64,000 nucleotides of DNA from an uncultured Alphaproteobacteria bacterium (GCA_949156565.1 CASCZI010000004.1:65110-129109); one strand, 5' to 3'; counted from the stretch's first letter, positions 39,440-55,820 are shown. The notes: generated by a model from the sequence alone, not told the origin. A program made the numbers and translations.

Positions 39440-39530
39440 ACCAAAACTGTACCACGCCCACCCCCGGGCGGGGGGGCACCCCATCCATGGGTTTCACAGA
39501 ACCCAATTCGAACTTTTTTTGAAATTTTGA
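39440..39530. repeat. copy of a dispersed intergenic repeat (ccatgg...gaactt block with a GC hairpin)
   Basis: ccacccccgggcggggggg plus ccatgggtttcacagaacccaattcgaacttttt resembles the blocks at 55.98 kb and 58.67 kb. Confidence 0.35.
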
Positions 39531-39588
39531 ATTGCGTTTTTTTGCTTCTCAATTGTATATATAAACCGTTTCAGTAAAGTTATGCATT

Positions 39589-40158
39589 TCATTTTGTTTT
39601 TGAGCCAATAAGTGAAGATGTATCTTTTATAATTCTTGATAGCGCGTCGTTATCTATTTTTGCATTAATTTTTTCTCCAGTTCCTGCAATATAAATCGTT
39701 TTAAGTTTTTTAATATTTTTATAATTTTCTATGTCGCTAACAATTTCTGCCAAGAAATTTTCGTATGAAATCAAAATAATTGATCGGGTTTCTCCTTGAT
39801 TTAAAGTTATTGGATTTTTATATAAATCCGTATCATACGGTAGTATCAGCAGTCTAGTTTTGTCTTTACGTTTAAAGTCAAAATAAAAACTAGTACTTTG
39901 TAAAATTAACGGACGGCTACCTTTGTTTTTGATACATAGTGTAACGAGCTCATTTCCCATCAATCGTTCAGATTTAACAAGATATGATTTATCGCCCCCT
40001 ATTAATTTCATAATGGAAACACTTGCTACAGCTTTTAGTCTATTTTGCCTTGTCGAAACAAATAAAGAAACTATTACAGCGCTGCAAGTGCCTATTGCAA
40101 CTAGAAGCTGGATAATGAGTTCTATAAAATCTTTATACGATATAATGAAGTTATACAT
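39589..40158 (-). CDS. hypothetical protein (low-GC island)
   Basis: A 189-aa AT-rich ORF with an N-terminal TM helix. Confidence 0.4.
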   Translation of the reverse strand: MYNFIISYKDFIELIIQLLVAIGTCSAVIVSLFVSTRQNRLKAVASVSIMKLIGGDKSYLVKSERLMGNELVTLCIKNKGSRPLILQSTSFYFDFKRKDKTRLLILPYDTDLYKNPITLNQGETRSIILISYENFLAEIVSDIENYKNIKKLKTIYIAGTGEKINAKIDNDALSRIIKDTSSLIGSKTK

Positions 40159-40319
40159 AATGCCCTTCTATATAATTAAACTGTATTATAGTTTGTTGCA
40201 TATGGGTTTCAATGATAAAATTGCTTGCAATAGTTATTCAGATAATGTATAATCATTTCCGTATTTGGCGTAGCGAGCCATAGGCGAACGATAGCAAGTT
40301 TGCTAAAAATTCCCCTTAA

Positions 40320-40409
40320 AATCGTTATTCGGAGCGTTGCCAGAGTGGTAATGGAGCGGATTGCTAATCCGTCATGGGGTTAAACTCATGCATAGGTTCG
40401 AGTCCTATA
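40320..40409 (+). tRNA. tRNA-Ser (anticodon GCT), type II with a long variable arm
   Basis: Acceptor GGAGCGT/ACGCTCC, anticodon loop TTGCTAA, T-loop TTCGAGT and an encoded CCA. Confidence 0.9.
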
Positions 40410-40417
40410 CGCTCCGC

Positions 40418-40441
40418 CAGATTTTAAAAAGCCCTTGTTTG
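40418..40441. terminator. bidirectional terminator after tRNA-Ser
   Basis: The sequence aaaagcccttgtttgggcttttttat. Confidence 0.6.
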
Positions 40442-40448
40442 GGCTTTT

Positions 40449-40979
40449 TTATATTGAATAAAGCAGTTCTGGAATAACGCCAGTCATCAGTATTGTCCCC
40501 CAACATTTAAGCCAACCAATAACAAAATATTGTGTGCCACTTTGAGCTAAACCAGATCTAGTAAAATATAGTTTAATGGCTTCGGGTTGAAGTCGACCAC
40601 GAAAAAATATACATTTATTCGGATTGGCATCAAATTGTGTTGTCCCACTCCAACGCGTTAATTTTGTACCAGAGATTTCTTTTGCACCAAGATATATAAA
40701 TAATCCAAAAAGTAATGTGGCAATTTTGTATGTATGTTGGCCAAAGAAAACAAAGCCCAGAGCAATAAATGTTATAATTGCCAAATTAGATGTGATGCGA
40801 TCCAAATATTGGATTTTTGATCGTGCGGCATTATCTCTGGCAAGATAGAATCTTTTAAATAAAAGAAGCATAACAAACAGGACTGAGGACAAAAGACCAA
40901 TTATAAATAAAGCTGTTTTCATTAGAAAATCCTTTTTTGAATATATACTTATTTTTATTTGCTTTTCAAGAAACGTCAT
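40449..40979 (-). CDS. hypothetical multi-pass membrane protein (low-GC island)
   Basis: Four or five hydrophobic helices in an AT-rich ORF. Confidence 0.45.
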   Translation of the reverse strand: MTFLEKQIKISIYSKKDFLMKTALFIIGLLSSVLFVMLLLFKRFYLARDNAARSKIQYLDRITSNLAIITFIALGFVFFGQHTYKIATLLFGLFIYLGAKEISGTKLTRWSGTTQFDANPNKCIFFRGRLQPEAIKLYFTRSGLAQSGTQYFVIGWLKCWGTILMTGVIPELLYSI

Positions 40980-41200
40980 TGTAAAATAATTTTGAATCCA
41001 ATGGGAATTGGGTTCGGGGCTGTGGTAGCCCGTATATCCGGTACGTAGGTGTCGTAATCCAAAGATTCACACTTATTGTATCGTCAAAATATCCCCCGAC
41101 TTCGTGCCGGGGAGCTGTCAGTTATAAAATACGGCTTATCCGGAAGGCTGGCGGAATCAATGATATACTGATTACCAACTCCCCGACCGTCAAATTCTCG

Positions 41201-41527
41201 TTGACGGTCTTACTTTTTGCAAAGGTGAATTTAAAAAAAATGGACATATTGGCGATTGTAATAGTTATAGTTGCATATTTTTTAGAGTCGGCTTTTTGGA
41301 TGGGGATTTTATGCTTTGTTCTAATTCTTGCTCTTGGATATGTTTTAGAAAACCGAAAGTGCGGCGACGAGTACGATGAGTGTAATTTGTCAAAAAAATG
41401 GCAACGGAACATACTGTGTGTCATATTAATAATCGGCGTGTGTATCTCGAGTTTTATTGCCTCTCATAACGCAAAAAAGAATCGTATTGCGGAAATTAAA
41501 GAAGTCTGTTCCATGGTTAAATATTAA
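41201..41527 (+). CDS. hypothetical small membrane protein
   Basis: Two TM helices in an AT-rich ORF. Confidence 0.35.
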   Translation: MTVLLFAKVNLKKMDILAIVIVIVAYFLESAFWMGILCFVLILALGYVLENRKCGDEYDECNLSKKWQRNILCVILIIGVCISSFIASHNAKKNRIAEIKEVCSMVKY

Positions 41528-41583
41528 AATAATGAAAGAAAAACTAAAAACACATGGTTCAGAAGAAACTATAGAATGATGAG

Positions 41584-42132
41584 GTGACGGACATGAAATG
41601 GATACAGAATATTTTTACAAAATATAACTATATGCCACCTGAATGGGAATTCGCATCGGGTGTTAAGACAACCGCAATAAACACGTATATTTTAACCATT
41701 TTATTGATTATAACCGCTGGCTGGGGAATAGGATTTGGTATTTTTTGTTGCATGTTGCTTATTGATTATATCGGTATATTAATTAATCGATACAGGTACG
41801 CAAAAATTGAAAATGAGTTTAAAAATTACATTATGTCAGGGTTAACACCTTGTTTGGTGTACGCAAAAAGTGACCCACTAGGTATAATGTATACACTTGT
41901 TGTTGATGATAAATTATCGACTGTTTTTGCTGACTTGGATGCAGAGCCAGCCTTTTGGCCCATTGTTATATTCCTGTCAGAACAGGTAAAAACAGATTTA
42001 AAGAAAAAGCATTGGGATACGCCAACAAAAGTTAATAAATTCTATAAAGATAAAATTGTTCGGCTGCCGTCTTGTAAGCCAACAGATAAAAATCTTGCTG
42101 TAATAAAGGCTGTTTTAAAATATCCGTCTTGA
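41584..42132 (+). CDS. hypothetical membrane protein
   Basis: Two N-terminal TM helices. The ORF overlaps the integrase fragment on the opposite strand. Confidence 0.35.
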   Translation: MTDMKWIQNIFTKYNYMPPEWEFASGVKTTAINTYILTILLIITAGWGIGFGIFCCMLLIDYIGILINRYRYAKIENEFKNYIMSGLTPCLVYAKSDPLGIMYTLVVDDKLSTVFADLDAEPAFWPIVIFLSEQVKTDLKKKHWDTPTKVNKFYKDKIVRLPSCKPTDKNLAVIKAVLKYPS

Positions 42133-42448
42133 TCGCGGTTAATGAATATTGACCGATTAAATCCCGCCATATCCCCAGTTGGACACGAATGTCCCGGCTC
42201 TTGTTTTGTTTCTTGGGCAATTCTTCGTTCAGATACCGGTCGATTAATTCGCCGACGGTACGGCGTTTGGATTCCATTTGCGGCAAATACTTACCGTCAC
42301 GCAGGGCGATTTCCGTACGCATGGCCCATTCGGCGGCCTTGGTCTTGGATTTAAACGTTGCAGACTGGGGCGGGAATCCGGTAATACGCACCAGGGCGCG
42401 GTATGATACCGTGCCATCCTTACCCATTCTTTTCTGGTACGTAGCCAT
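42032..42448 (-). pseudogene. tyrosine integrase, N-terminal arm-binding fragment only (truncated)
   Basis: MATYQKRMGKDGTVSYRALVRITGFPPQSATFKSKTKAAEWAMRTEIALRDG matches the N-terminus of P4-like integrases. The ORF stops after about 139 aa, so the catalytic domain is absent. Confidence 0.6.
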
Positions 42449-42723
42449 TGCTAACACCCCGTCTGTTTTTGGATCATCAGATAAATAATCTGTGTCCAAG
42501 GTCGATTTGTCGGTTGAATTTCTGCACTTTTGGGTGCGTTCAATTCGGTGTTGGTACAGTTTTTGTGCATCAACATAATATAATACCAATATCGACCATA
42601 GAATTTGGGGTGTTTAGTGGTATTTTTTTGTAAATTATGATGATTTTTGTACCATGGGTGTACCACGGCGTGCGCACACAATTGATAAAATATTGATTTT
42701 ATGAGGTTTTTAAAAAGAAAAAA

Positions 42724-42766
42724 GCAGATTAGCAATCTGCTGCATTACCACTCTGCCAACGCTCCG
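42724..42766 (-). other. 5' half of a diverged tRNA-Ser(GCU)-like gene (acceptor 5' strand, D-arm, anticodon arm)
   Basis: The minus strand reads CGGAGCGTTGGCAGAGTGGTAATGCAGCAGATTGCTAATCTGC then T6CT5. It has compensatory stem changes relative to the intact tRNA (cggat/atccg versus cagat/atctg). Confidence 0.5.
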
Positions 42767-42860
42767 TCGTGGGATTATTATATAGAATGCGATTGTTAAT
42801 TGCAAGTGGGATTTTATATTTCATTGACATCATCTGATTTTTATTTACTATATCCCGGCC

Positions 42861-43337
42861 ATGAACAGATTTTATAAGGTTATTTTTATTGGGGATATGC
42901 ATTCAGATTCACTGTTTGCATCAACGTTTGGCATCCATGGGCTAACCGATCTGAAACCTGGTCGGAAATTTATGGCCACCCATAAATATATATCCGTTGA
43001 CATTGAAAAATATGCCATACCATCGCCGGTACCATTAATTCATTTTTGTGATAACGCGGTGGATACTTTGTTGTGGCGCCAAATCTTTGGTCATGTTCGA
43101 TATGTATTTGAAATTCAACCCATTGGTCCCATCACATATGATATATGTAAAGACCACAATCGTTTACAACAATGTGGGGCGCCGGGGATCGAATTAAAGC
43201 AACTCGTCACCGAAAATGGCTTGATCAATCTGGCCAAAGCGGAAATAGCCGTCAACCCCGATAGGATCATTAATCAATATAAAAACCCGTTGATCCGACA
43301 ATGGTTGTGGCGGTTGTATCATGGGGCACGAAAATAA
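42861..43337 (+). CDS. hypothetical protein
   Basis: A 158-aa ORF with no motif recognised. Confidence 0.35.
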   Translation: MNRFYKVIFIGDMHSDSLFASTFGIHGLTDLKPGRKFMATHKYISVDIEKYAIPSPVPLIHFCDNAVDTLLWRQIFGHVRYVFEIQPIGPITYDICKDHNRLQQCGAPGIELKQLVTENGLINLAKAEIAVNPDRIINQYKNPLIRQWLWRLYHGARK

Positions 43338-43497
43338 CCCAAACCAATATAAATTAATAATTGTAATGCAATAACAGATACTGGATATTGCCCCCGGCCG
43401 AATTTGATCGTGCCATCGGCGCGGCAATATGCCGTTACCCCAATATAAACTTTTTGCGTTATATTTGTATGTTTCGGGAATGCATACGCATTAAAAA

Positions 43498-49235: not shown

Positions 49236-49266
49236 CGGGCATTTTATAATAATGGCGGAGACGGAG
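49236..49266 (-). repeat. direct-repeat copy of the tRNA-Ser(CGA) 3' end plus 13 nt of flank (att-like)
   Basis: The 33 nt cattttataataatggcggagacggagggattt are identical at 49234-49266 and 49396-49428. A third degenerate copy lies at 49374-49395. Confidence 0.7.
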
Positions 49267-49418
49267 GGATTTCGCTCAGCACTATTTCATGGTGCCTGCG
49301 CGGCAGTCCTAACGGCTTGACTATGCTTCGCTTGTCTCGCCTACTCCTCGTGAACCCCGGGGTTCTGCATCCCCCACCACATTATTATAAAATATACCGC
49401 TGGCACATTTTATAATAA

Positions 49419-49507
49419 TGGCGGAGACGGAGGGATTTGAACCCCCGATACGGTTGCCCGTATACACGATTTCGAGTCGCGCGCATTCAACCACTCTGCC
49501 ACGTCTC
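49419..49507 (-). tRNA. tRNA-Ser (anticodon CGA), type II
   Basis: The reverse complement reads GGAGACGTGGCAGAGTGGTTGAATGC...CTCGAAA...GGTTCAAATCCCTCCGTCTCCGCCA, with a long variable arm and an encoded CCA. Confidence 0.9.
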
Positions 49508-49677
49508 CACGGATGGGCATTATACAGGTTTTGTTTCTTTTTGCAAGGGGTTTGTATTTTAATTGATTTTGATGCCAAATTATGCTATAATATCATTAAA
49601 ATTCATGACGGCCCATCGGGCCGTCTTTTTTCATGACCACCCCACCCGGGGTGTTTTTTTATCAAAGGAATACAACC

Positions 49678-50835
49678 ATGTCCAAATTACCTGAATTTTT
49701 ATTGAAATTAATGCATTCTGACGCCTATATGAATCAATTACATCCAAATTATCAAGATGTAAATCAGCGTGTCAGCCGGTATATGCAAATGCTATTTCCG
49801 GGCAAAATGACATATGATTCTGCCGGACGATTATCCGAACCAGAATACGATATGACACTAGAACAATTTAATCAGGCCCAACAACAAATTGATGCGGATT
49901 TCGAAGATGAAAAGCAAGAGAAAGAACAAGAAGTTTGGGATGAATATGAAGAAACTTTTGAAATAATGGGTTATGAATTTGATATAGAAAATTTCATCTT
50001 TCCCGGCGAACAAATCTCCAAACGCGTTCTGTATCCCGACGGCATGATTATAACAAAATATCTGGAAACACAAATTGTAGACGTTCCCGAATTTAAAAAA
50101 CTGATGCGCGTGTGGATATGGCATGCCGAAAATGGACCAAATATGTGTGATGAATGTGGTGTACGTGATGGCGCAGTCTTTTTTGATGTCGCAGACATTC
50201 CATCGATACCGGTTCATCCCAACTGTCGATGCCGCATCACCGAAGATATTATCAACCAAGACGGAAAAATTATTCAGAGTAAAAAGTATGAACCCAAAGG
50301 GAAATCAATGAACGATATAAATTTTGATAAAGCATATGCGAATTTAAAGGAACGCGAAGGCGGTTATACCGATGGAAAAAATCAGGTTAATGACGAACCA
50401 ACTAATATGGGGATTAAACAAAGCACATTAAATAAATATGCACAAAAACACCCCGAAAAAAACTTCCCAGTTGATGTGAAAGACTTGAAACCAGAACAAG
50501 CCCGGGAAATATACAAGGAGAATTACTGGGACAACACAAAAATACCACAAATTGAAAATGAACGGATCCGCAATGCGGTTTTTGATATGAATGTAATGGG
50601 TGGTGTTGCCGCCGCTAATGTTCTTCAAAATACATTAAATTCATACTTAGGTGCAGGAATAAACGTGGATAGCGTTATTGGCAGCATAACAATCAATACG
50701 ATCAATTCTATTTCTAAAAATCAAGTAAATGAATTTATGACTGCGCTAAAACAAAACAGAATAGAATCTTTACAGAAAATGCCAAACTGGCCAACGGCAA
50801 AAGGAGGCTGGACCAAGCGAACAAATGCGTATTAA
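49678..50835 (+). CDS. two-domain protein with an N-terminal phage MuF/SPP1-gp7-like domain (HPNCRC motif) and a C-terminal GH108 lysozyme-like plus peptidoglycan-binding (PG_binding_3) domain
   Basis: MuF-like PVHPNCRCRI motif around residue 210. The GH108 segment is REGGYTDGKNQVNDEPTNMGIKQSTLNKYA...IYKENYWD...AVFDMNVMGGVAAANVLQNTL. The PG-binding tail is GGWTKRTN. An SD (aagga) is present and GC is low. Confidence 0.7.
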   Translation: MSKLPEFLLKLMHSDAYMNQLHPNYQDVNQRVSRYMQMLFPGKMTYDSAGRLSEPEYDMTLEQFNQAQQQIDADFEDEKQEKEQEVWDEYEETFEIMGYEFDIENFIFPGEQISKRVLYPDGMIITKYLETQIVDVPEFKKLMRVWIWHAENGPNMCDECGVRDGAVFFDVADIPSIPVHPNCRCRITEDIINQDGKIIQSKKYEPKGKSMNDINFDKAYANLKEREGGYTDGKNQVNDEPTNMGIKQSTLNKYAQKHPEKNFPVDVKDLKPEQAREIYKENYWDNTKIPQIENERIRNAVFDMNVMGGVAAANVLQNTLNSYLGAGINVDSVIGSITINTINSISKNQVNEFMTALKQNRIESLQKMPNWPTAKGGWTKRTNAY

Positions 50836-50837
50836 AA

Positions 50838-50874
50838 ATAGCCCATACCGGTTTTCTGGTATGGGCATTTTTAA
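50838..50874. terminator. bidirectional terminator
   Basis: The hairpin gcccataccggttttctggtatgggc followed by TTTTT. Confidence 0.6.
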
Positions 50875-51227
50875 TTATCAATAAATTCTGGAACACCTAT
50901 TATTTCGCCGCATTTGACCAAAATTCCGACATTTCGACCATCTATATAGGCATACGCCAGGTCGATAGGATCATCATTTATATATATTTCATAATAAAAT
51001 TGTGCATCTTTTGAGCCTTGGATTTTTTTATACCCCAATTTTTCAATGGATTTTTCTGTGGGTATAGAATCATCACACAAAGGGCAATAATCAATATAAA
51101 CATCTGTATTTTTAAACAAATCATATGCGCGTAAAAAAGTTTCATAATCCAAATAGCCACATTGGTCCGCATGAGCAGGATTAAGATTTAACAATATTAC
51201 AAATATAGAGAAAAACTTTTTTATCAT
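50871..51227 (-). CDS. small secreted hypothetical protein (signal peptide)
   Basis: The N-terminus MIKKFFSIFVILLNLNPAHA is signal-peptide-like. Product is 118 aa, AT-rich. Confidence 0.5.
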   Translation of the reverse strand: MIKKFFSIFVILLNLNPAHADQCGYLDYETFLRAYDLFKNTDVYIDYCPLCDDSIPTEKSIEKLGYKKIQGSKDAQFYYEIYINDDPIDLAYAYIDGRNVGILVKCGEIIGVPEFIDN

Positions 51228-51854
51228 CTTACCATTCCATATCTACATATGATGCCAGGCATAGGGATTAAACGGGGATTGCGTTAATAATTCCCAAGAA
51301 CTCTTTGCCGCATCAAATTGTGCATAAGCCCTATCCAAGGAAATAATTGTGCTGCAATAGGAATAGCATGCATCAGGTCGTGAAATAAAACCGACCATAT
51401 CCCCTAAATTGATAAAATTTTCATTCATCGCATTGGCCTTTTGCGTGTAATCCCGATCAATAATTTTATAGATTATTCATGAAATAAATTATACGAAATT
51501 CCCATAAATCAATCAATAAAAAAATTCCCATCCCATATATCTAGGCAATGTATAAATAATATCTTAATATAAATTGTCCGGCAAAACGGTGAAGCAATAT
51601 ATTATTTCTATTAACAAAAAAAGCATGTATTCAGGCTGATTCAAATTTAATTTATGATTATCAAAAATACTTAATAAATCACGGGGTGTAAATTCTATAC
51701 CTATGACATGTTATATGTACCGTTATGAAACATATATAAATTTCCCCCTCCACTGCCATCATAATCCATGGGTCCATTTAATAGAATTAAGATTAATCTT
51801 TGGACATATGAACATTTTATGCTAGGGTTGTGATGTAATTCAATGGGGGAAATA

Positions 51855-52346
51855 ATGCGATATAAACCTAGATTTATTATTTGTTTTGGATTTTGCTTTG
51901 TTTTCCCCAACCTATGTATGGCAAAAGATAACTTGTTTTTACAAGAAAACAAATGGGAATCATGTAACTATTATGATGACAGCCGCAAAGAAATCGTTGA
52001 TGAAGGCTGCGAACAGGGAAAAATAAAGATTTCCAGTTGTGATGATAACTTGTGCTTTTTTCAAATAACAATGGAACACGGGAAACCGTTTCATTCGGCA
52101 TGTACCATGTGGGGTAAATTGCATATTGATAATGATAAACATGCATTCGGTCTTGCCATCGCAGAATATCGGCGGCGCGGTATGGACCGTCGCGAATTTG
52201 AAGATTGTGAATTAAATTTTGACATTACCGACAATCTTATGAACATATCGATCAAATCCGGATGTGACAAATGGTGCCGCCCCGATGAATTTGAATTTAA
52301 CAACACGTATCATATTGATAATACAGGTGGCGCCATTACAATGTAG
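51855..52346 (+). CDS. secreted Cys-rich hypothetical protein
   Basis: A signal-peptide-like N-terminus and about 12 Cys. AT-rich. Confidence 0.45.
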   Translation: MRYKPRFIICFGFCFVFPNLCMAKDNLFLQENKWESCNYYDDSRKEIVDEGCEQGKIKISSCDDNLCFFQITMEHGKPFHSACTMWGKLHIDNDKHAFGLAIAEYRRRGMDRREFEDCELNFDITDNLMNISIKSGCDKWCRPDEFEFNNTYHIDNTGGAITM

Positions 52347-52363
52347 CCAGATATAATTGGTGA

Positions 52364-53179
52364 TTAATATAGATCATCGTTGTAAATTAACTTGCCATGC
52401 TCGGACAAAATTACTTTTTTATTCGGGCCAATAACCTTTAATTCGGTATGAAAAATATCACCATTAACACCCATTTCCAAGATATTTTCAATAATATATT
52501 TATACTTTCCATTGTTAAAAACATATTCATTCATAGGATCTATCATTCCACCTATTGAATTATTGACGCCGTTATAAAGCACCAAATCTGGTGTATCTGT
52601 TGTTTGTTTCCCGGATGACCATGATATGTATCTGTATTTTCCATCAACGACATCAATGCGAACTAAAAATTTTTTCGTCTGAATAATTTGCACAACACGG
52701 GAAAAATTATGCAATTCATCTGGCATTGCAAATCCATCAAATGCATTGGCTTGTTTATCTGATTCTGATTTCGAAAGGATCAGATTAATAAGATTTCCAG
52801 ATAAATCCATATCAACAAAACTGGCGATCATTGCCCGCTTTAACATCAATGTATCTTCTATGGATTTATACCATCCGATTTTACCGTACGTGGGATCATA
52901 AAAATCACTGGTTGGATTAACGGATAAAATTAATTCTTTTTGTTCGGAATCAAATATATCACCGTACCGCGCGATAAATTCAGACGGATTGTTAACGGGT
53001 TTTAATGGATATGCTCGGCGCAATGGATACTTGATATATTTAGCCAGCGTTTCCGCGTCATCGTGACGAATTAAATCTTGAAATTGTTGAATATGTTCTA
53101 TGTATGTTTTATCGGATACTTTGGCCCAACAATACGGTACATAAGTGAATAACATCAGAAATAAAATAATTGATTTCAT
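52364..53179 (-). CDS. secreted hypothetical protein
   Basis: Signal peptide MKSIILFLMLFTYVPYCWA. AT-rich. Confidence 0.5.
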   Translation of the reverse strand: MKSIILFLMLFTYVPYCWAKVSDKTYIEHIQQFQDLIRHDDAETLAKYIKYPLRRAYPLKPVNNPSEFIARYGDIFDSEQKELILSVNPTSDFYDPTYGKIGWYKSIEDTLMLKRAMIASFVDMDLSGNLINLILSKSESDKQANAFDGFAMPDELHNFSRVVQIIQTKKFLVRIDVVDGKYRYISWSSGKQTTDTPDLVLYNGVNNSIGGMIDPMNEYVFNNGKYKYIIENILEMGVNGDIFHTELKVIGPNKKVILSEHGKLIYNDDLY

Positions 53180-53726
53180 AGAATGAATTATACGATTATA
53201 ATCTTGGATCAATCAATAAAAAAATATCACGGACCATGACCTTTGTCACAATCAAATAAATGGTACCACACATACATCATAATGCGGCAACACATTGTGA
53301 ATTAAACACGGAAAACTGATTCCCATTTATACACAAAATTATCCCCATTGGGGATTTTAAGATTTCTTTGGTGTGTTTTTATTTTTGGCCGACCGCGGTT
53401 TGCATTTATTAGCGTTTTTGTCGGCAATGGATAACGCGATCGCGATGGCCTGTTTGTGTGGACGGCCCGCGCGGGTTTCGGTGCGAATGTTTTCGGAAAT
53501 GGCACGACGGGAACATCCCTTTATCAATGGCACGATTCAATCCTTTGGTTCGCCCTATTCTATCACAACATATGAACCCAAACCATAGGGATAAATTTCT
53601 AGATATTTAGGCATAAACAAAAGGAAATCCAGTGATGCGGGGCACATCATCAAAAATCAATGTCACATCGTCAATATTTAGGTCGGCCAAATATCCCCAC
53701 AAAGAGTTATATTTATCCAATTAAAA

Positions 53727-54944: not shown

Positions 54945-55820
54945 TTATCCGTAATATGATCGCACCTTTTGCCGCATTTTTGACGTTGGCAAAAATATCG
55001 CCACGATGCGCGCCAATGGGTACATAATACGACGTGTAAACCATGTGTTGGGCATCTTGCGATCGGTTTTGCCACGCAACCATGCAATGCCACCATACTT
55101 TGGACTATTCTTATGCCGAGAAATGATTTTTACCATGGGCATGCCAATGGATGGAATTTGTTTCAATTTTCCTTCGGGGAAACCATACGCCCGCCCACAG
55201 AGTAAATATTTCTTTCCCATCATATAGGCATTCAAATGACTCTCGTCATCAACACAGGCAACAATATTATGATCTAAATCTGTTTGAACATTCGTTGCCA
55301 ACGTCCGACACATTTTCAAATAGGCATCGGCCGTCCCCCCATTAAATGCCCCACACACATAATGCCGCCCCATCCCAAAGGGAATATAGGCGGTTGATTC
55401 CGGCCGCCGTTCATACGGATAGGAATCAATTTCCCCATCACGTGTATCACCCCAGCGCCCAGGATGCGATCCGGCAACCAACCCATCATGCCATTCACGT
55501 GGTGTAATTTCCGCCAAATCAACAGGTGCAATAAATTGCATATTGGCATTAAAGAAATAAATATAATCAAATTTTTTCAATTCTTTTTCGCGTTCTAAAA
55601 ACATATGAAAACGCAATAACGTATCATACGGCCATCCGCGACGCTGGGCCGGAATAACCGTTACGTTGGGATTATCACAATAATCAAATTGGTCATTGTC
55701 GGTCCAGACAAAATAATGTTTTTCACATGGTCCCAAATACCGTTCGCATGATTCATAAAAATCGCGCCAGAAAATGATATAACGCCCCAGGGCAATGTAT
55801 AAAATGGCAACTTTTGGCAT
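54945..55820 (-). CDS. glycosyltransferase family 6 (histo-blood-group A/B transferase-like)
   Basis: GT6 motifs ILYIALGRYIIFWRDFY, GWPYDTLLRFH, FFNANMQF (bacterial NxN in place of DxD), YERRPESTAYIP, VDDESHLNAY and KYGG. Confidence 0.8.
   Translation of the reverse strand: MPKVAILYIALGRYIIFWRDFYESCERYLGPCEKHYFVWTDNDQFDYCDNPNVTVIPAQRRGWPYDTLLRFHMFLEREKELKKFDYIYFFNANMQFIAPVDLAEITPREWHDGLVAGSHPGRWGDTRDGEIDSYPYERRPESTAYIPFGMGRHYVCGAFNGGTADAYLKMCRTLATNVQTDLDHNIVACVDDESHLNAYMMGKKYLLCGRAYGFPEGKLKQIPSIGMPMVKIISRHKNSPKYGGIAWLRGKTDRKMPNTWFTRRIMYPLARIVAIFLPTSKMRQKVRSYYG

Follow-up and report, generated by a model that had tools for sequence, protein, structure and literature searches.

What kind of element is a short, AT-rich block that lies beside a tRNA gene in the genome of an uncultured alphaproteobacterium: a piece of a phage, a cell wall enzyme of the host, or a weapon? 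The block belongs to a 64-kb stretch of the Alphaproteobacteria metagenome-assembled genome (MAG) GCA_949156565.1, referred to here as the window; related loci from other genomes carry L-numbers. An earlier note, written from the sequence of the window alone, had described a MuF-like/GH108 lysozyme fusion followed by small secreted proteins and had read the block as a domesticated or remnant MuF-toxin cargo rather than an ordinary prophage. We consider it likely that the block is a chromosomal polymorphic toxin-immunity locus targeting peptidoglycan, carried by an Enterousia-like (Rs-D84) gut alphaproteobacterium, and not a prophage. Its central gene encodes a 385-aa putative toxin (the toxin, for brevity) and its neighbors are candidate immunity genes, called partners below. 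Coordinates of all features of the block are collected in Table 1.

The main evidence comes from the relatives of the toxin. A search of 5.8 billion proteins recovered 108 relatives, ~45 of them full length, which are ~42-54% identical and in many cases come from long contigs. Among GTDB contigs (one genome per species), all confirmed relatives (116/116) were found in MAGs of Candidatus Enterousia or uncultured (Alpha)proteobacteria, with human, ruminant, horse and bird guts as sources, and several carrier genomes hold two or three copies. Proteins flanking the block in the window share 60-88% identity with their counterparts in such MAGs, one of which is L016 (Ca. Enterousia avistercoris). 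Enterousia-like hosts belong to the order Rs-D84, have genomes under 1 Mb, lack respiration and part of glycolysis, and are thought to be partner-dependent (PMC12306168). We called open reading frames (ORFs) in the related loci, placed the conserved N-terminal region (N-domain) with a hidden Markov model (HMM) and clustered the parts downstream of it. The 64 intact proteins (63 GTDB loci and the window) were distributed among three unrelated tail classes: GH24 (n = 27), Tlde1-like (n = 24) and GH108 (n = 13, including the window). Relatives from metagenomes add M23 peptidase and T4-lysozyme-like tails. The polymorphic-toxin architecture suggested from the sequence is therefore borne out, one N-domain carrying three unrelated wall-targeting C-termini on heads up to 98% identical. 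Median N-domain identity is 0.50 within a class and 0.49 between classes, and tails are therefore shuffled independently of heads. The identity break falls at the N-domain end, so that the family shows the conserved N-terminal module with recombined C-termini that Zhang et al. 2012 (PMC3482391) use to define polymorphic toxin systems; the general features of such systems are present, trafficking route apart.

Displacement of older cassettes is directly visible in a pair of related loci. L041 (Tlde1-type) and L038 (GH108-type) are 96.6% identical up to the last N-domain codons and then diverge. In L038, the last ~200 nt of the Tlde1 tail of L041 and the partner that goes with it turn up again, 98.5% identical and displaced ~1.1 kb downstream, on the far side of the inserted GH108-plus-partner cassette. 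Orphan pieces are also found elsewhere, namely a GH108 tail in L035 and Tlde1 tails in L038, in L129 and in a survey of neighboring genes, with a further case in L132. The window itself holds three orphans in the sense of Zhang et al.: a truncated remnant (51246-51476), orf167 and orf282. The remnant matches the HMM of a partner family (E 1.5e-11) over profile positions 85-154 of 239, lacks the gene start and is 41-45% identical by tblastn to the C-terminal parts of GH24-type partners. The other two are likely orphan immunity genes, because their families adjoin lysozyme-type toxins elsewhere. The closest homolog of orf167 (60% identity; L079 8877-9362) directly follows a T4-lysozyme-like module, which in turn comes after the decayed end of an N-domain; orf167 itself has no toxin upstream in the window. 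Similarly, the orf282 homolog P0256 (50% identity) abuts, convergently, a 344-aa PG_binding_1 + GH108 protein in L126, and a similar PG_binding_1 + GH108 locus, L129, holds an array of orphan Tlde1 tails and small ORFs. The two further AT-rich secreted proteins listed earlier thus exist as ORFs and are not anonymous. As a separate observation, ~50-nt regions upstream of the remnant and of orf282 are repeats of each other (51476-51525 and 53175-53225, 86-100% identity), and each holds a TTGATT...TATAAT promoter-like site; such sites would fit continued expression of the orphans.

Are the genes of the block intact, or is this decaying DNA in which reading frames have survived by chance in AT-rich sequence? 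The longest frame of the toxin (49633-50835, plus strand) would encode 400 aa. Homolog alignments begin at Met 49678 (MSKLPEF...) and an AAGGA ribosome-binding site lies just upstream, and for these two reasons we favor the start that gives the 385-aa product, in agreement with the original call. Decay would be consistent with the truncated gene at 51246-51476 and with the long AT-rich spacers, such as 51429-51842 with a GC content of 0.29. However, comparison with more than 40 homologs shows a full-length toxin in which all catalytic and motif residues are intact, the adjacent partner is full length relative to the partners of L038 and L043, and AT-rich DNA is rich in stop codons, such that ORFs of 385, 282, 167 and 118 aa are not expected by chance. 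We regard junk DNA as an extremely improbable explanation.

The C-terminal half of the toxin is a GH108 enzyme by sequence. Pfam family PF05838 matches residues 224-309 (E 1.9e-16, 60.8 bits against a cut-off of 21.2), a PHROG endolysin family matches at 8.8e-27, and a match to holin-associated N-acetylmuramidase was obtained from NCBIfam. Catalytic residues of Brucella SagA are Glu17, Asp26 and Thr31 (PMC8334348); in the sequence alignment to SagA (7dnp), E227 and T242 of the toxin correspond to Glu17 and Thr31. The Asp role is assigned to D239, not from the HMMER alignment: the residue is invariant and lies in the same loop, three residues before the Thr. E227, D239 and T242 are invariant across 41 aligned homologs, so that loss of the catalytic Glu, which we looked for, is not seen and the complete GH108 muramidase of the earlier note holds up. 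An above-threshold domain with catalytic Glu, Asp and Thr places the protein in GH108, with predicted muramidase activity. In the AlphaFold2 model, built with 41 homologs, the mean predicted local distance difference test score (pLDDT) is 85. Foldseek matched the C-terminal half to Brucella SagA (7dnp), Neisseria NMB1012, Salmonella TtsA and a P. gingivalis "secretion activator" protein. The best matches, to SagA and NMB1012, extend over ~170 residues at a target-normalised TM-score of 0.73-0.76 and cover both the GH108 and the peptidoglycan-binding halves. The PG_binding_3 tail proposed earlier is hence recovered in its fold by the matches to SagA, NMB1012 and TtsA, and its Pfam score stays under the cut-off (E 0.049). 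No signal peptide was recognized by eye in the toxin.

The N-terminal half gave a more complex picture. The note had taken residues 1-220 for a MuF domain, but every comparison confined the resemblance to residues ~130-190, and a full MuF domain was rejected. Phage_Mu_F (PF04233) matches residues 141-187 only, at model positions 61-111 of 112 (23.9 bits against a cut-off of 29.6, E 7e-5), TIGR01641 (SPP1-gp7) in NCBIfam is likewise sub-threshold (20.1 against 39.65), and PHROG families for minor head and head morphogenesis proteins match at 6.6e-11 and 2.1e-8. Against 2.9 million viral contigs, the N-domain profile matched through residues ~146-188 only; residues 1-140 were absent from these contigs and from 50,697 phage genomes, and cultured phages matched the GH108 half only (~30% identity, as endolysins). 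A HMMER search of 1.84 billion representative proteins returned 1016 matches, of which 21 were below 1e-30; the others align to profile positions ~127-193 only. The model of the N-domain (pLDDT 87) has no match in the PDB, and BFVD gave local matches only (41-70 columns), to phage minor capsid and head morphogenesis proteins. We infer that the ~50-residue subdomain is MuF-derived and that residues 1-140 are a lineage-specific addition. The MuF-like/GH108 fusion thus stands for the motif, whose match is significant (Pfam 7e-5, PHROG 6.6e-11), and not for residues 1-140. Six motif residues are invariant (C157, C160, H180, N182, C183 and C185) and the motif is probably a metal-binding site. A PF04233 match is present in 57 of 83 remote relatives of the motif, in which wall hydrolases are the commonest fused enzyme domains (lysozyme 10, M23 9, M15 3). 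Independently of the locus studied here, 15/83 of these remote relatives carry Serum amyloid A (PF00277), and further fusions include a VgrG3-like C-terminal domain (one), Pesticin, Lipase_3 and Fic. From these architectures, a wider set of short MuF-motif fusions seems to exist. A distinct 201-aa family combines an N-terminal WRNNNPGNL region with a C-terminal MuF motif that is above the cut-off (PF04233, 38.9 bits). It occurs at L001 13275-13880 (minus strand), at L030 9161-9766 and at four more loci, 0.7-7.6 kb from toxin genes; its neighbors in L001 are a 166-aa ORF and a deaminase.

Each toxin class has its own partner families, L032 being the one exception. Tlde1-type toxins are followed by same-strand ORFs of ~100-118 aa with multiple transmembrane segments (20/21 loci with a called downstream ORF, three families), GH24-type toxins by one of two families, convergent (16 loci) or encoding lipoproteins on the same strand (9 loci), and GH108-type toxins by convergent signal-peptide proteins (12/13 loci). 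The last belong to two unrelated families, one made up of the 118-aa ORF of the window and the partners of L038 and L043, and the other present in nine loci. By gene context, the family therefore has an adjacent immunity gene that changes with the toxin domain, as Zhang et al. require. The 118-aa ORF is 37-38% identical over 118 aa (E ~1e-27) to the L038 and L043 partners, which take the same convergent position after GH108 toxins. The proposal that this signal-peptide protein could be an immunity factor is strengthened in that it occupies the partner position and its 38%-identical homologs do so in two other species. No family in Pfam, PHROG, NCBIfam or PADLOC covers it; Pfam likewise matches none of the partner families examined, and PADLOC returned nothing meaningful for known defense systems and no match for the partner ORFs of the window. 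A single GH108 partner family was considered and dropped: the link consists of a 29-residue match, probably the signal peptide, and a profile made without the window group misses the 118-aa ORF. Overall, at least seven Pfam-less partner families are candidates for new inhibitors of lysozymes and of L,D-transpeptidase-type enzymes.

Several points weigh against a toxin-immunity locus. Toxicity and immunity are deduced from gene context alone, and GH108 enzymes also act as phage endolysins and as secretion-system helpers (SagA, TtsA). Signal peptides were judged by eye, from an N-terminal basic stretch followed by a hydrophobic one with an AxA-like site at its end. Neither beside the toxin in the window nor among the conserved neighbors of related loci did we find a secretion or injection apparatus. 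Finally, GH108 tails ~63% identical to that of the window have partners in unrelated families, and tail divergence correlates weakly with partner divergence (rho 0.31); specific pairing of toxin and partner is therefore only a candidate.

GC content is 0.355 within the inserted segment and 0.455 in the remainder of the window, below that of all sliding 4.18-kb windows (300/300) and ~3 standard deviations under their mean, with values of 0.30-0.38 over ~49.5-53.5 kb. Measurement and the ARAGORN call thus confirm a low-GC block next to tRNA-Ser(CGA). The 5' end of the tRNA gene lies 170 nt from the toxin start, and the gene is 87-89% identical to tRNA-Ser(cga) of L035, L015, L016 and L052. In comparison with L015 and L016, similarity stops at 53726/53727 and restarts at 49547. 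These two loci lack the segment at this point, and their amiC stop codon abuts the region upstream of tRNA-Ser(cga), which marks the segment as an insertion at a conserved site. In L035, L015, L016 and L052, tRNA-Ser(cga) is flanked by amiC on one side and, on its 3' side, by a toxin gene of another type that shares its orientation. The L035 cargo lies between the tRNA and an MGMT-like gene; in the window, the MGMT-like gene is 237 nt from the tRNA. Across the family, 41/63 toxin genes have a tRNA at most 1.5 kb upstream, 40 of these 41 tRNAs are co-oriented and the median gap is 282 nt; the hotspot tRNAs are His-gtg, three Ser species, Glu-ttc and Lys-ttt. The window cargo sits non-canonically, on the 5' side of the hotspot tRNA.

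The block thus does not take up the 3'-end integration site that is classical for tRNA genes and used in relatives. A classical 3'-end island is ruled out, with the cargo 5' of the tRNA and the 33-nt repeat spanning merely 133 nt. No integrase was found within the inserted segment, and the defining features of a tRNA-integrated island are lacking. A simple inversion of the cargo relative to L035 was also rejected, as the tRNA orientation fits such an inversion neither with nor without the tRNA. By its sequence and placement, the 33-nt repeat looks like an att-type scar on the 3' side of the tRNA. In relatives, repeats of the tRNA 3' end measure 19-34 nt; some are located ~130 nt past the tRNA, ahead of the toxin, and others directly after the toxin-partner pair (L032, L028, L018 and L023).

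The same data bear on the possibility that the enzyme is a housekeeping or specialised autolysin, which would open the wall of its own cell for a surface machine or, beside amiC, for division, with the neighboring gene as a regulator, as has been proposed for SagA-PhiA in Brucella, or as with TtsA in Salmonella Typhi. SagA and TtsA are indeed the best structural matches, an AmiC-type amidase gene lies alongside, and PhiA has been proposed as a periplasmic inhibitor of SagA, with inhibition unconfirmed with purified proteins (PMC8334348). Yet the segment is absent at this position in sister species and deviates in GC content, one and the same N-domain can bear GH24 or Tlde1-type modules in place of this enzyme, there are multiple copies that vary from one species to the next, and the toxin lacks a signal peptide. 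Adjacency to amiC reflects the tRNA hotspot and not an operon, the two genes being on opposite strands ~2.9 kb apart. PhiA, moreover, has an MliC/PliC fold, unlike the 118-aa partner, which has no detectable family. An autolysin is, in our view, very unlikely.

A stronger case can be made for a phage or satellite remnant, in which the protein would be a virion-internal lysin, a MuF-type head protein whose wall-degrading tail breaches peptidoglycan once it is ejected with the DNA, and the small periplasmic proteins would be inhibitors serving superinfection exclusion against incoming particles rather than parts of an interbacterial weapon. The MuF motif is homologous to phage minor head proteins, wall hydrolases are the commonest enzyme fusions in the 83 remote relatives, and most toxin genes lie just 3' of tRNAs with att-like repeats. 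In addition, a module consisting of a ParB-N6/N4 methylase, DUF5681 and TerL (Terminase_6C), which came to light by BLAST of neighboring ORFs against viral-contig ORFs, is found intact beside the toxin in L048, L043 and L022 and within 10 kb of it in L136, with fragments in ~8 further loci. TerL homologs are frequent on Enterousia-sized contigs, always in a compact set with a large serine recombinase and DUF2924. The terminase lead from L048 and L022 was traced through seven TerL contexts, and in none of those read does a portal, capsid or tail gene follow; the reading as an intact prophage was therefore set aside. In one genome, the TerL module is 190 kb away from two tandem toxin loci. Within the window, BLAST against the ORFs of 42 viral contigs brought up no portal, terminase, capsid or other phage structural gene, a check of limited sensitivity, with most window ORFs not domain-scanned; Pfam on 14 flanking ORFs returned housekeeping families or no match. 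To that extent, the absence of other phage structural genes noted before is upheld. Residues 1-140 of the toxin are missing from viral contigs and phage genomes, and tandem paralogs and orphan arrays are typical of toxin loci and not of head modules. Conserved neighbors across the related loci are housekeeping genes (bamA, rseP, cdsA, uppS and frr; a miaB-like gene and rpoZ; amiC), defense genes and orphan modules. We judge a remnant of this kind unlikely. The earlier reading as remnant MuF-toxin cargo thus survives as a probable toxin-immunity locus without detected phage structural genes, and not as a member of the MuF family, for which domain score and portal are lacking.

How close the locus comes to MuF toxins deserves comment, as their role and delivery are still unknown (PMC11699363). 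Described MuF toxins, such as Apk2 and Bxa (PMC11699363), are encoded just downstream of portal genes in prophages, mostly of Firmicutes and Bacteroidales (PMC5576092, PMC11699363), and Jamet et al. assigned 96% of chromosomal muf genes to prophages or remnants (PMC5576092). Their toxin domains are nucleases, peptidases, ADP-ribosyltransferases, alarmone synthetases and deaminases, which act in the cytoplasm, and the immunity proteins characterised so far either inhibit the toxin itself or undo what it has produced (PMC5576092, PMC11699363). Neither "lysozyme" nor "peptidoglycan" appears in the main text of Jamet et al. (PMC5576092). Similar to MuF toxins (PMC3482391, PMC5576092), the family described here has an N-terminal module with the MuF signature (CxxC...HPNCxC), interchangeable toxin tails, small candidate immunity genes and possible orphan immunity genes, and TerS-like and TerL genes, which Zhang et al. 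list as neighbors in the MuF system (PMC3482391), are present at some of the related loci. In contrast to MuF toxins, only ~50 residues are MuF-like and the Pfam match is partial and sub-threshold; there is no upstream portal and no prophage, and the hosts are Alphaproteobacteria with reduced genomes. The tails are predicted to act on periplasmic peptidoglycan, and the partners are exported or membrane proteins. The definition of Jamet et al. asks for a MuF domain (PF04233, PF06152, MuF3 or MuF4) at the family threshold, for a position directly after a portal gene in a prophage head or packaging module, and for a variable toxin domain with adjacent immunity. Of these, a variable toxin domain with an adjacent candidate immunity gene is present, and the domain score and the portal or prophage context are not; with two of the family features missing, we therefore do not file the toxin in the MuF family. 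TerS-like or TerL genes occur in a minority of related loci and a portal in none. The TerL module echoes the MuF-plus-terminase neighborhoods of Zhang et al. (PMC3482391) and proves nothing on delivery. No publication on this family, or on a toxin system of any kind in Enterousia or Rs-D84, came up in our literature search.

Wall-degrading effectors paired with periplasmic immunity proteins are well known from type VI secretion systems (T6SS), as in Tse/Tsi, Tae/Tai, Tlde1-Tldi1 and VgrG3-TsiV3. The Tlde1 domain (PF10908) is likewise among the three C-termini of this family, and one remote relative has a VgrG3-like domain. Unlike T6SS effectors, the toxin has an N-domain unrelated to annotated T6SS markers, and no T6SS gene or adaptor domain was found in the window or among the conserved neighbors of related loci, whole genomes not being part of this search. 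Contact-dependent growth inhibition (CDI; CdiA-CT/CdiI) and Rhs systems are characterized by a sharp identity break between head and tail, downstream displacement of old cassettes and orphan arrays. The present family shows the same break, displacement (L041/L038) and arrays; however, its proteins are ~380 aa long, without stalk, repeats, VENN, PxxxxDPxGL or a comparable demarcation motif, and its partners are often convergent rather than co-directional. With SagA, TtsA of Salmonella Typhi and the endolysins of N4-type and Acinetobacter phages, the toxin shares the GH108 + PG_binding_3 fold and the catalytic Glu and Thr. Those proteins, in contrast, are single modules of ~170-200 aa, lack the N-domain and are not polymorphic.

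On the reading as a toxin-immunity locus, the 385-aa protein would be a modular effector whose 205-residue N-domain owes its Cys/His motif to the MuF/gp7 head proteins of phages. Through a charged linker, this domain would be connected to the GH108 and peptidoglycan-binding part, which is predicted to cut the glycan strands of the target wall. After export, the 118-aa partner would act in the periplasm and there shield the producing cell and its kin. Recombination at the N-domain end would bring in new tail-plus-immunity cassettes and shift the displaced ones downstream, which would make the downstream genes relics of earlier cassettes, one truncated and two intact orphan partners. The data show the domain identities, the shuffling of modules, the tie of partner family to toxin type, cassette displacement and insertion at a conserved site; muramidase activity, toxicity, immunity and, most of all, delivery are deduced from sequence, predicted structure and gene context. 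Lacking a signal peptide, the toxin is presumed to rely on its N-domain for trafficking, possibly through packaging into phage-derived particles via the MuF-like motif or through some export system. A toxin without signal peptide whose target and partner would be periplasmic is what would be expected of an effector that reaches the periplasm of other cells; hints at a route come from the MuF-like motif and occasional TerS-like/TerL neighbors only.

A more far-reaching idea, which we put forward tentatively and hold to be rather doubtful, is that the N-domain marks a new delivery route for periplasm-acting effectors in the ultra-small, partner-dependent Rs-D84. It comes in two versions, to which the same doubt applies jointly. 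In the first, the MuF motif would load the toxin into capsids that a helper phage supplies, or into particles whose mobilisation depends on the recurrent serine recombinase/ParB-methylase/DUF5681/TerL module, which lacks portal and capsid genes; if true, this would amount to a toxin-carrying satellite or a system resembling gene-transfer agents. In the second, the toxins would be wall-breaching weapons against the bacteria on which these cells depend, with immunity arrays for the protection of self and kin. The family departs from characterised MuF toxins, all of them encoded in prophage head modules and active in the cytoplasm, in that it retains the core motif only, occupies tRNA-linked chromosomal hotspots and carries solely wall-targeting modules with exported partners. 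As a compact system, with toxins of ~380 aa and partners of 100-160 aa, it can be used to ask what a MuF motif does without an adjacent portal. That Enterousia genomes of under 1 Mb keep several such loci suggests that interbacterial antagonism or attack on host cells is central to their lifestyle.

Table 1. Features of the inserted block and its surroundings (positions in the window)
Feature	Position	Strand	Remarks
Low-GC inserted segment	49548..53726		4179 bp; toxin, partner, orphan partner genes, 514-nt spacer
tRNA-Ser(cga)	49419..49508	-	ARAGORN; divergent from toxin gene
33-nt perfect direct repeat	49240..49272, second copy 49406-49438		tRNA 3' end + 13 nt; encloses 133 nt on the tRNA 3' side
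Putative leader	49563..49653	+	promoter-like TTGATT-17-TATAAT with extended TG (49563-49591), then hairpins 49607-49625 and 49638-49653
Toxin gene	49678..50835	+	385 aa; N-domain, Lys/Glu-rich linker, GH108 muramidase (predicted), peptidoglycan-binding domain
N-domain, residues 1-205	49678..50292	+	conserved head of the polymorphic family; lineage-specific; alignments A1, A2
MuF/gp7-like motif, residues 141-190	50098..50247	+	CxxC...HPNCRC; partial PF04233 and TIGR01641 matches
GH108 catalytic domain	50347..50604	+	PF05838; E227 codon 50356-50358
PG_binding_3-like helical domain	50611..50832	+	Pfam residues 312-381, E 0.049, below cut-off
Two-way terminator hairpin	50841..50866		between convergent toxin and partner; 11-bp stem, T runs on both strands
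Candidate cognate immunity gene	50871..51227	-	118 aa; signal peptide MIKKFFSIFVILLNLNPAHA / DQC by eye
Truncated partner remnant	51246..51476	-	GH24-linked convergent partner family; listed ORF 51243-51428, 61 aa
orf167	51843..52346	+	secreted Cys-rich protein; 60% identical to L079 8877-9362
orf282	52364..53212	-	secreted protein; probable start Met 53179, 271 aa
58-aa basic ORF	53357..53533	-	79% nt-identical to L042 7141-7279; no Pfam match

Some minor features of the locus and its relatives were also recorded. The leader of the toxin gene was delineated by a consensus scan and by reading of the sequence; with a promoter-like site and two terminator-like hairpins ahead of the start codon, it may be of the attenuator type. 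Neither the leader nor the island ends are conserved in the other loci examined.

The TerL module recurs at L130 6104-11443, L131 5271-11455, L134 8372-14718, L136 6111-11437 and L048 1460-9312, where it consists of a large serine recombinase, DUF2924, ParB_N/N6_N4 methylase, DUF5681, TerL and 2-3 small genes, often at most 10 kb from toxins. Possible identities are a phage satellite and a domesticated packaging module. Upstream of it in L131 (1-3200) are a protein with Mtd_N and mtd_2nd domains, a reverse transcriptase, a phage holin and an HNH gene; the Mtd-type protein and reverse transcriptase suggest a diversity-generating retroelement. Defense genes near toxin loci include an OLD-family nuclease with a UvrD helicase (Gabija-like), Cas9/Cas1/Cas2 with repeats and a SEFIR/TIR protein, at L003 12740-16878, L048 13913-18643 and L134 6705-8141. 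Toxin hotspots double as defense islands.

Elsewhere in the window, a second low-GC block (39500-43400, GC 0.34-0.37) directly follows a tRNA-Ser gct (40331-40419, plus strand). One of its ORFs (42032-42589, minus strand) resembles by eye the N-terminal part of a tyrosine integrase, with no Pfam match at E<0.01, and four others (39589-40158, 40449-40979, 41584-42132 and 42861-43337) are without family. An integrative element in decay is a possible explanation of this block. A glycosyltransferase family 6 gene (54945-55820, minus strand; PF03414, E 2.3e-20) lies between amiC and a conserved 414-aa ORF. It has no tblastn match in the related loci, including the syntenic L015, L016 and L035, and may represent a second small insertion.

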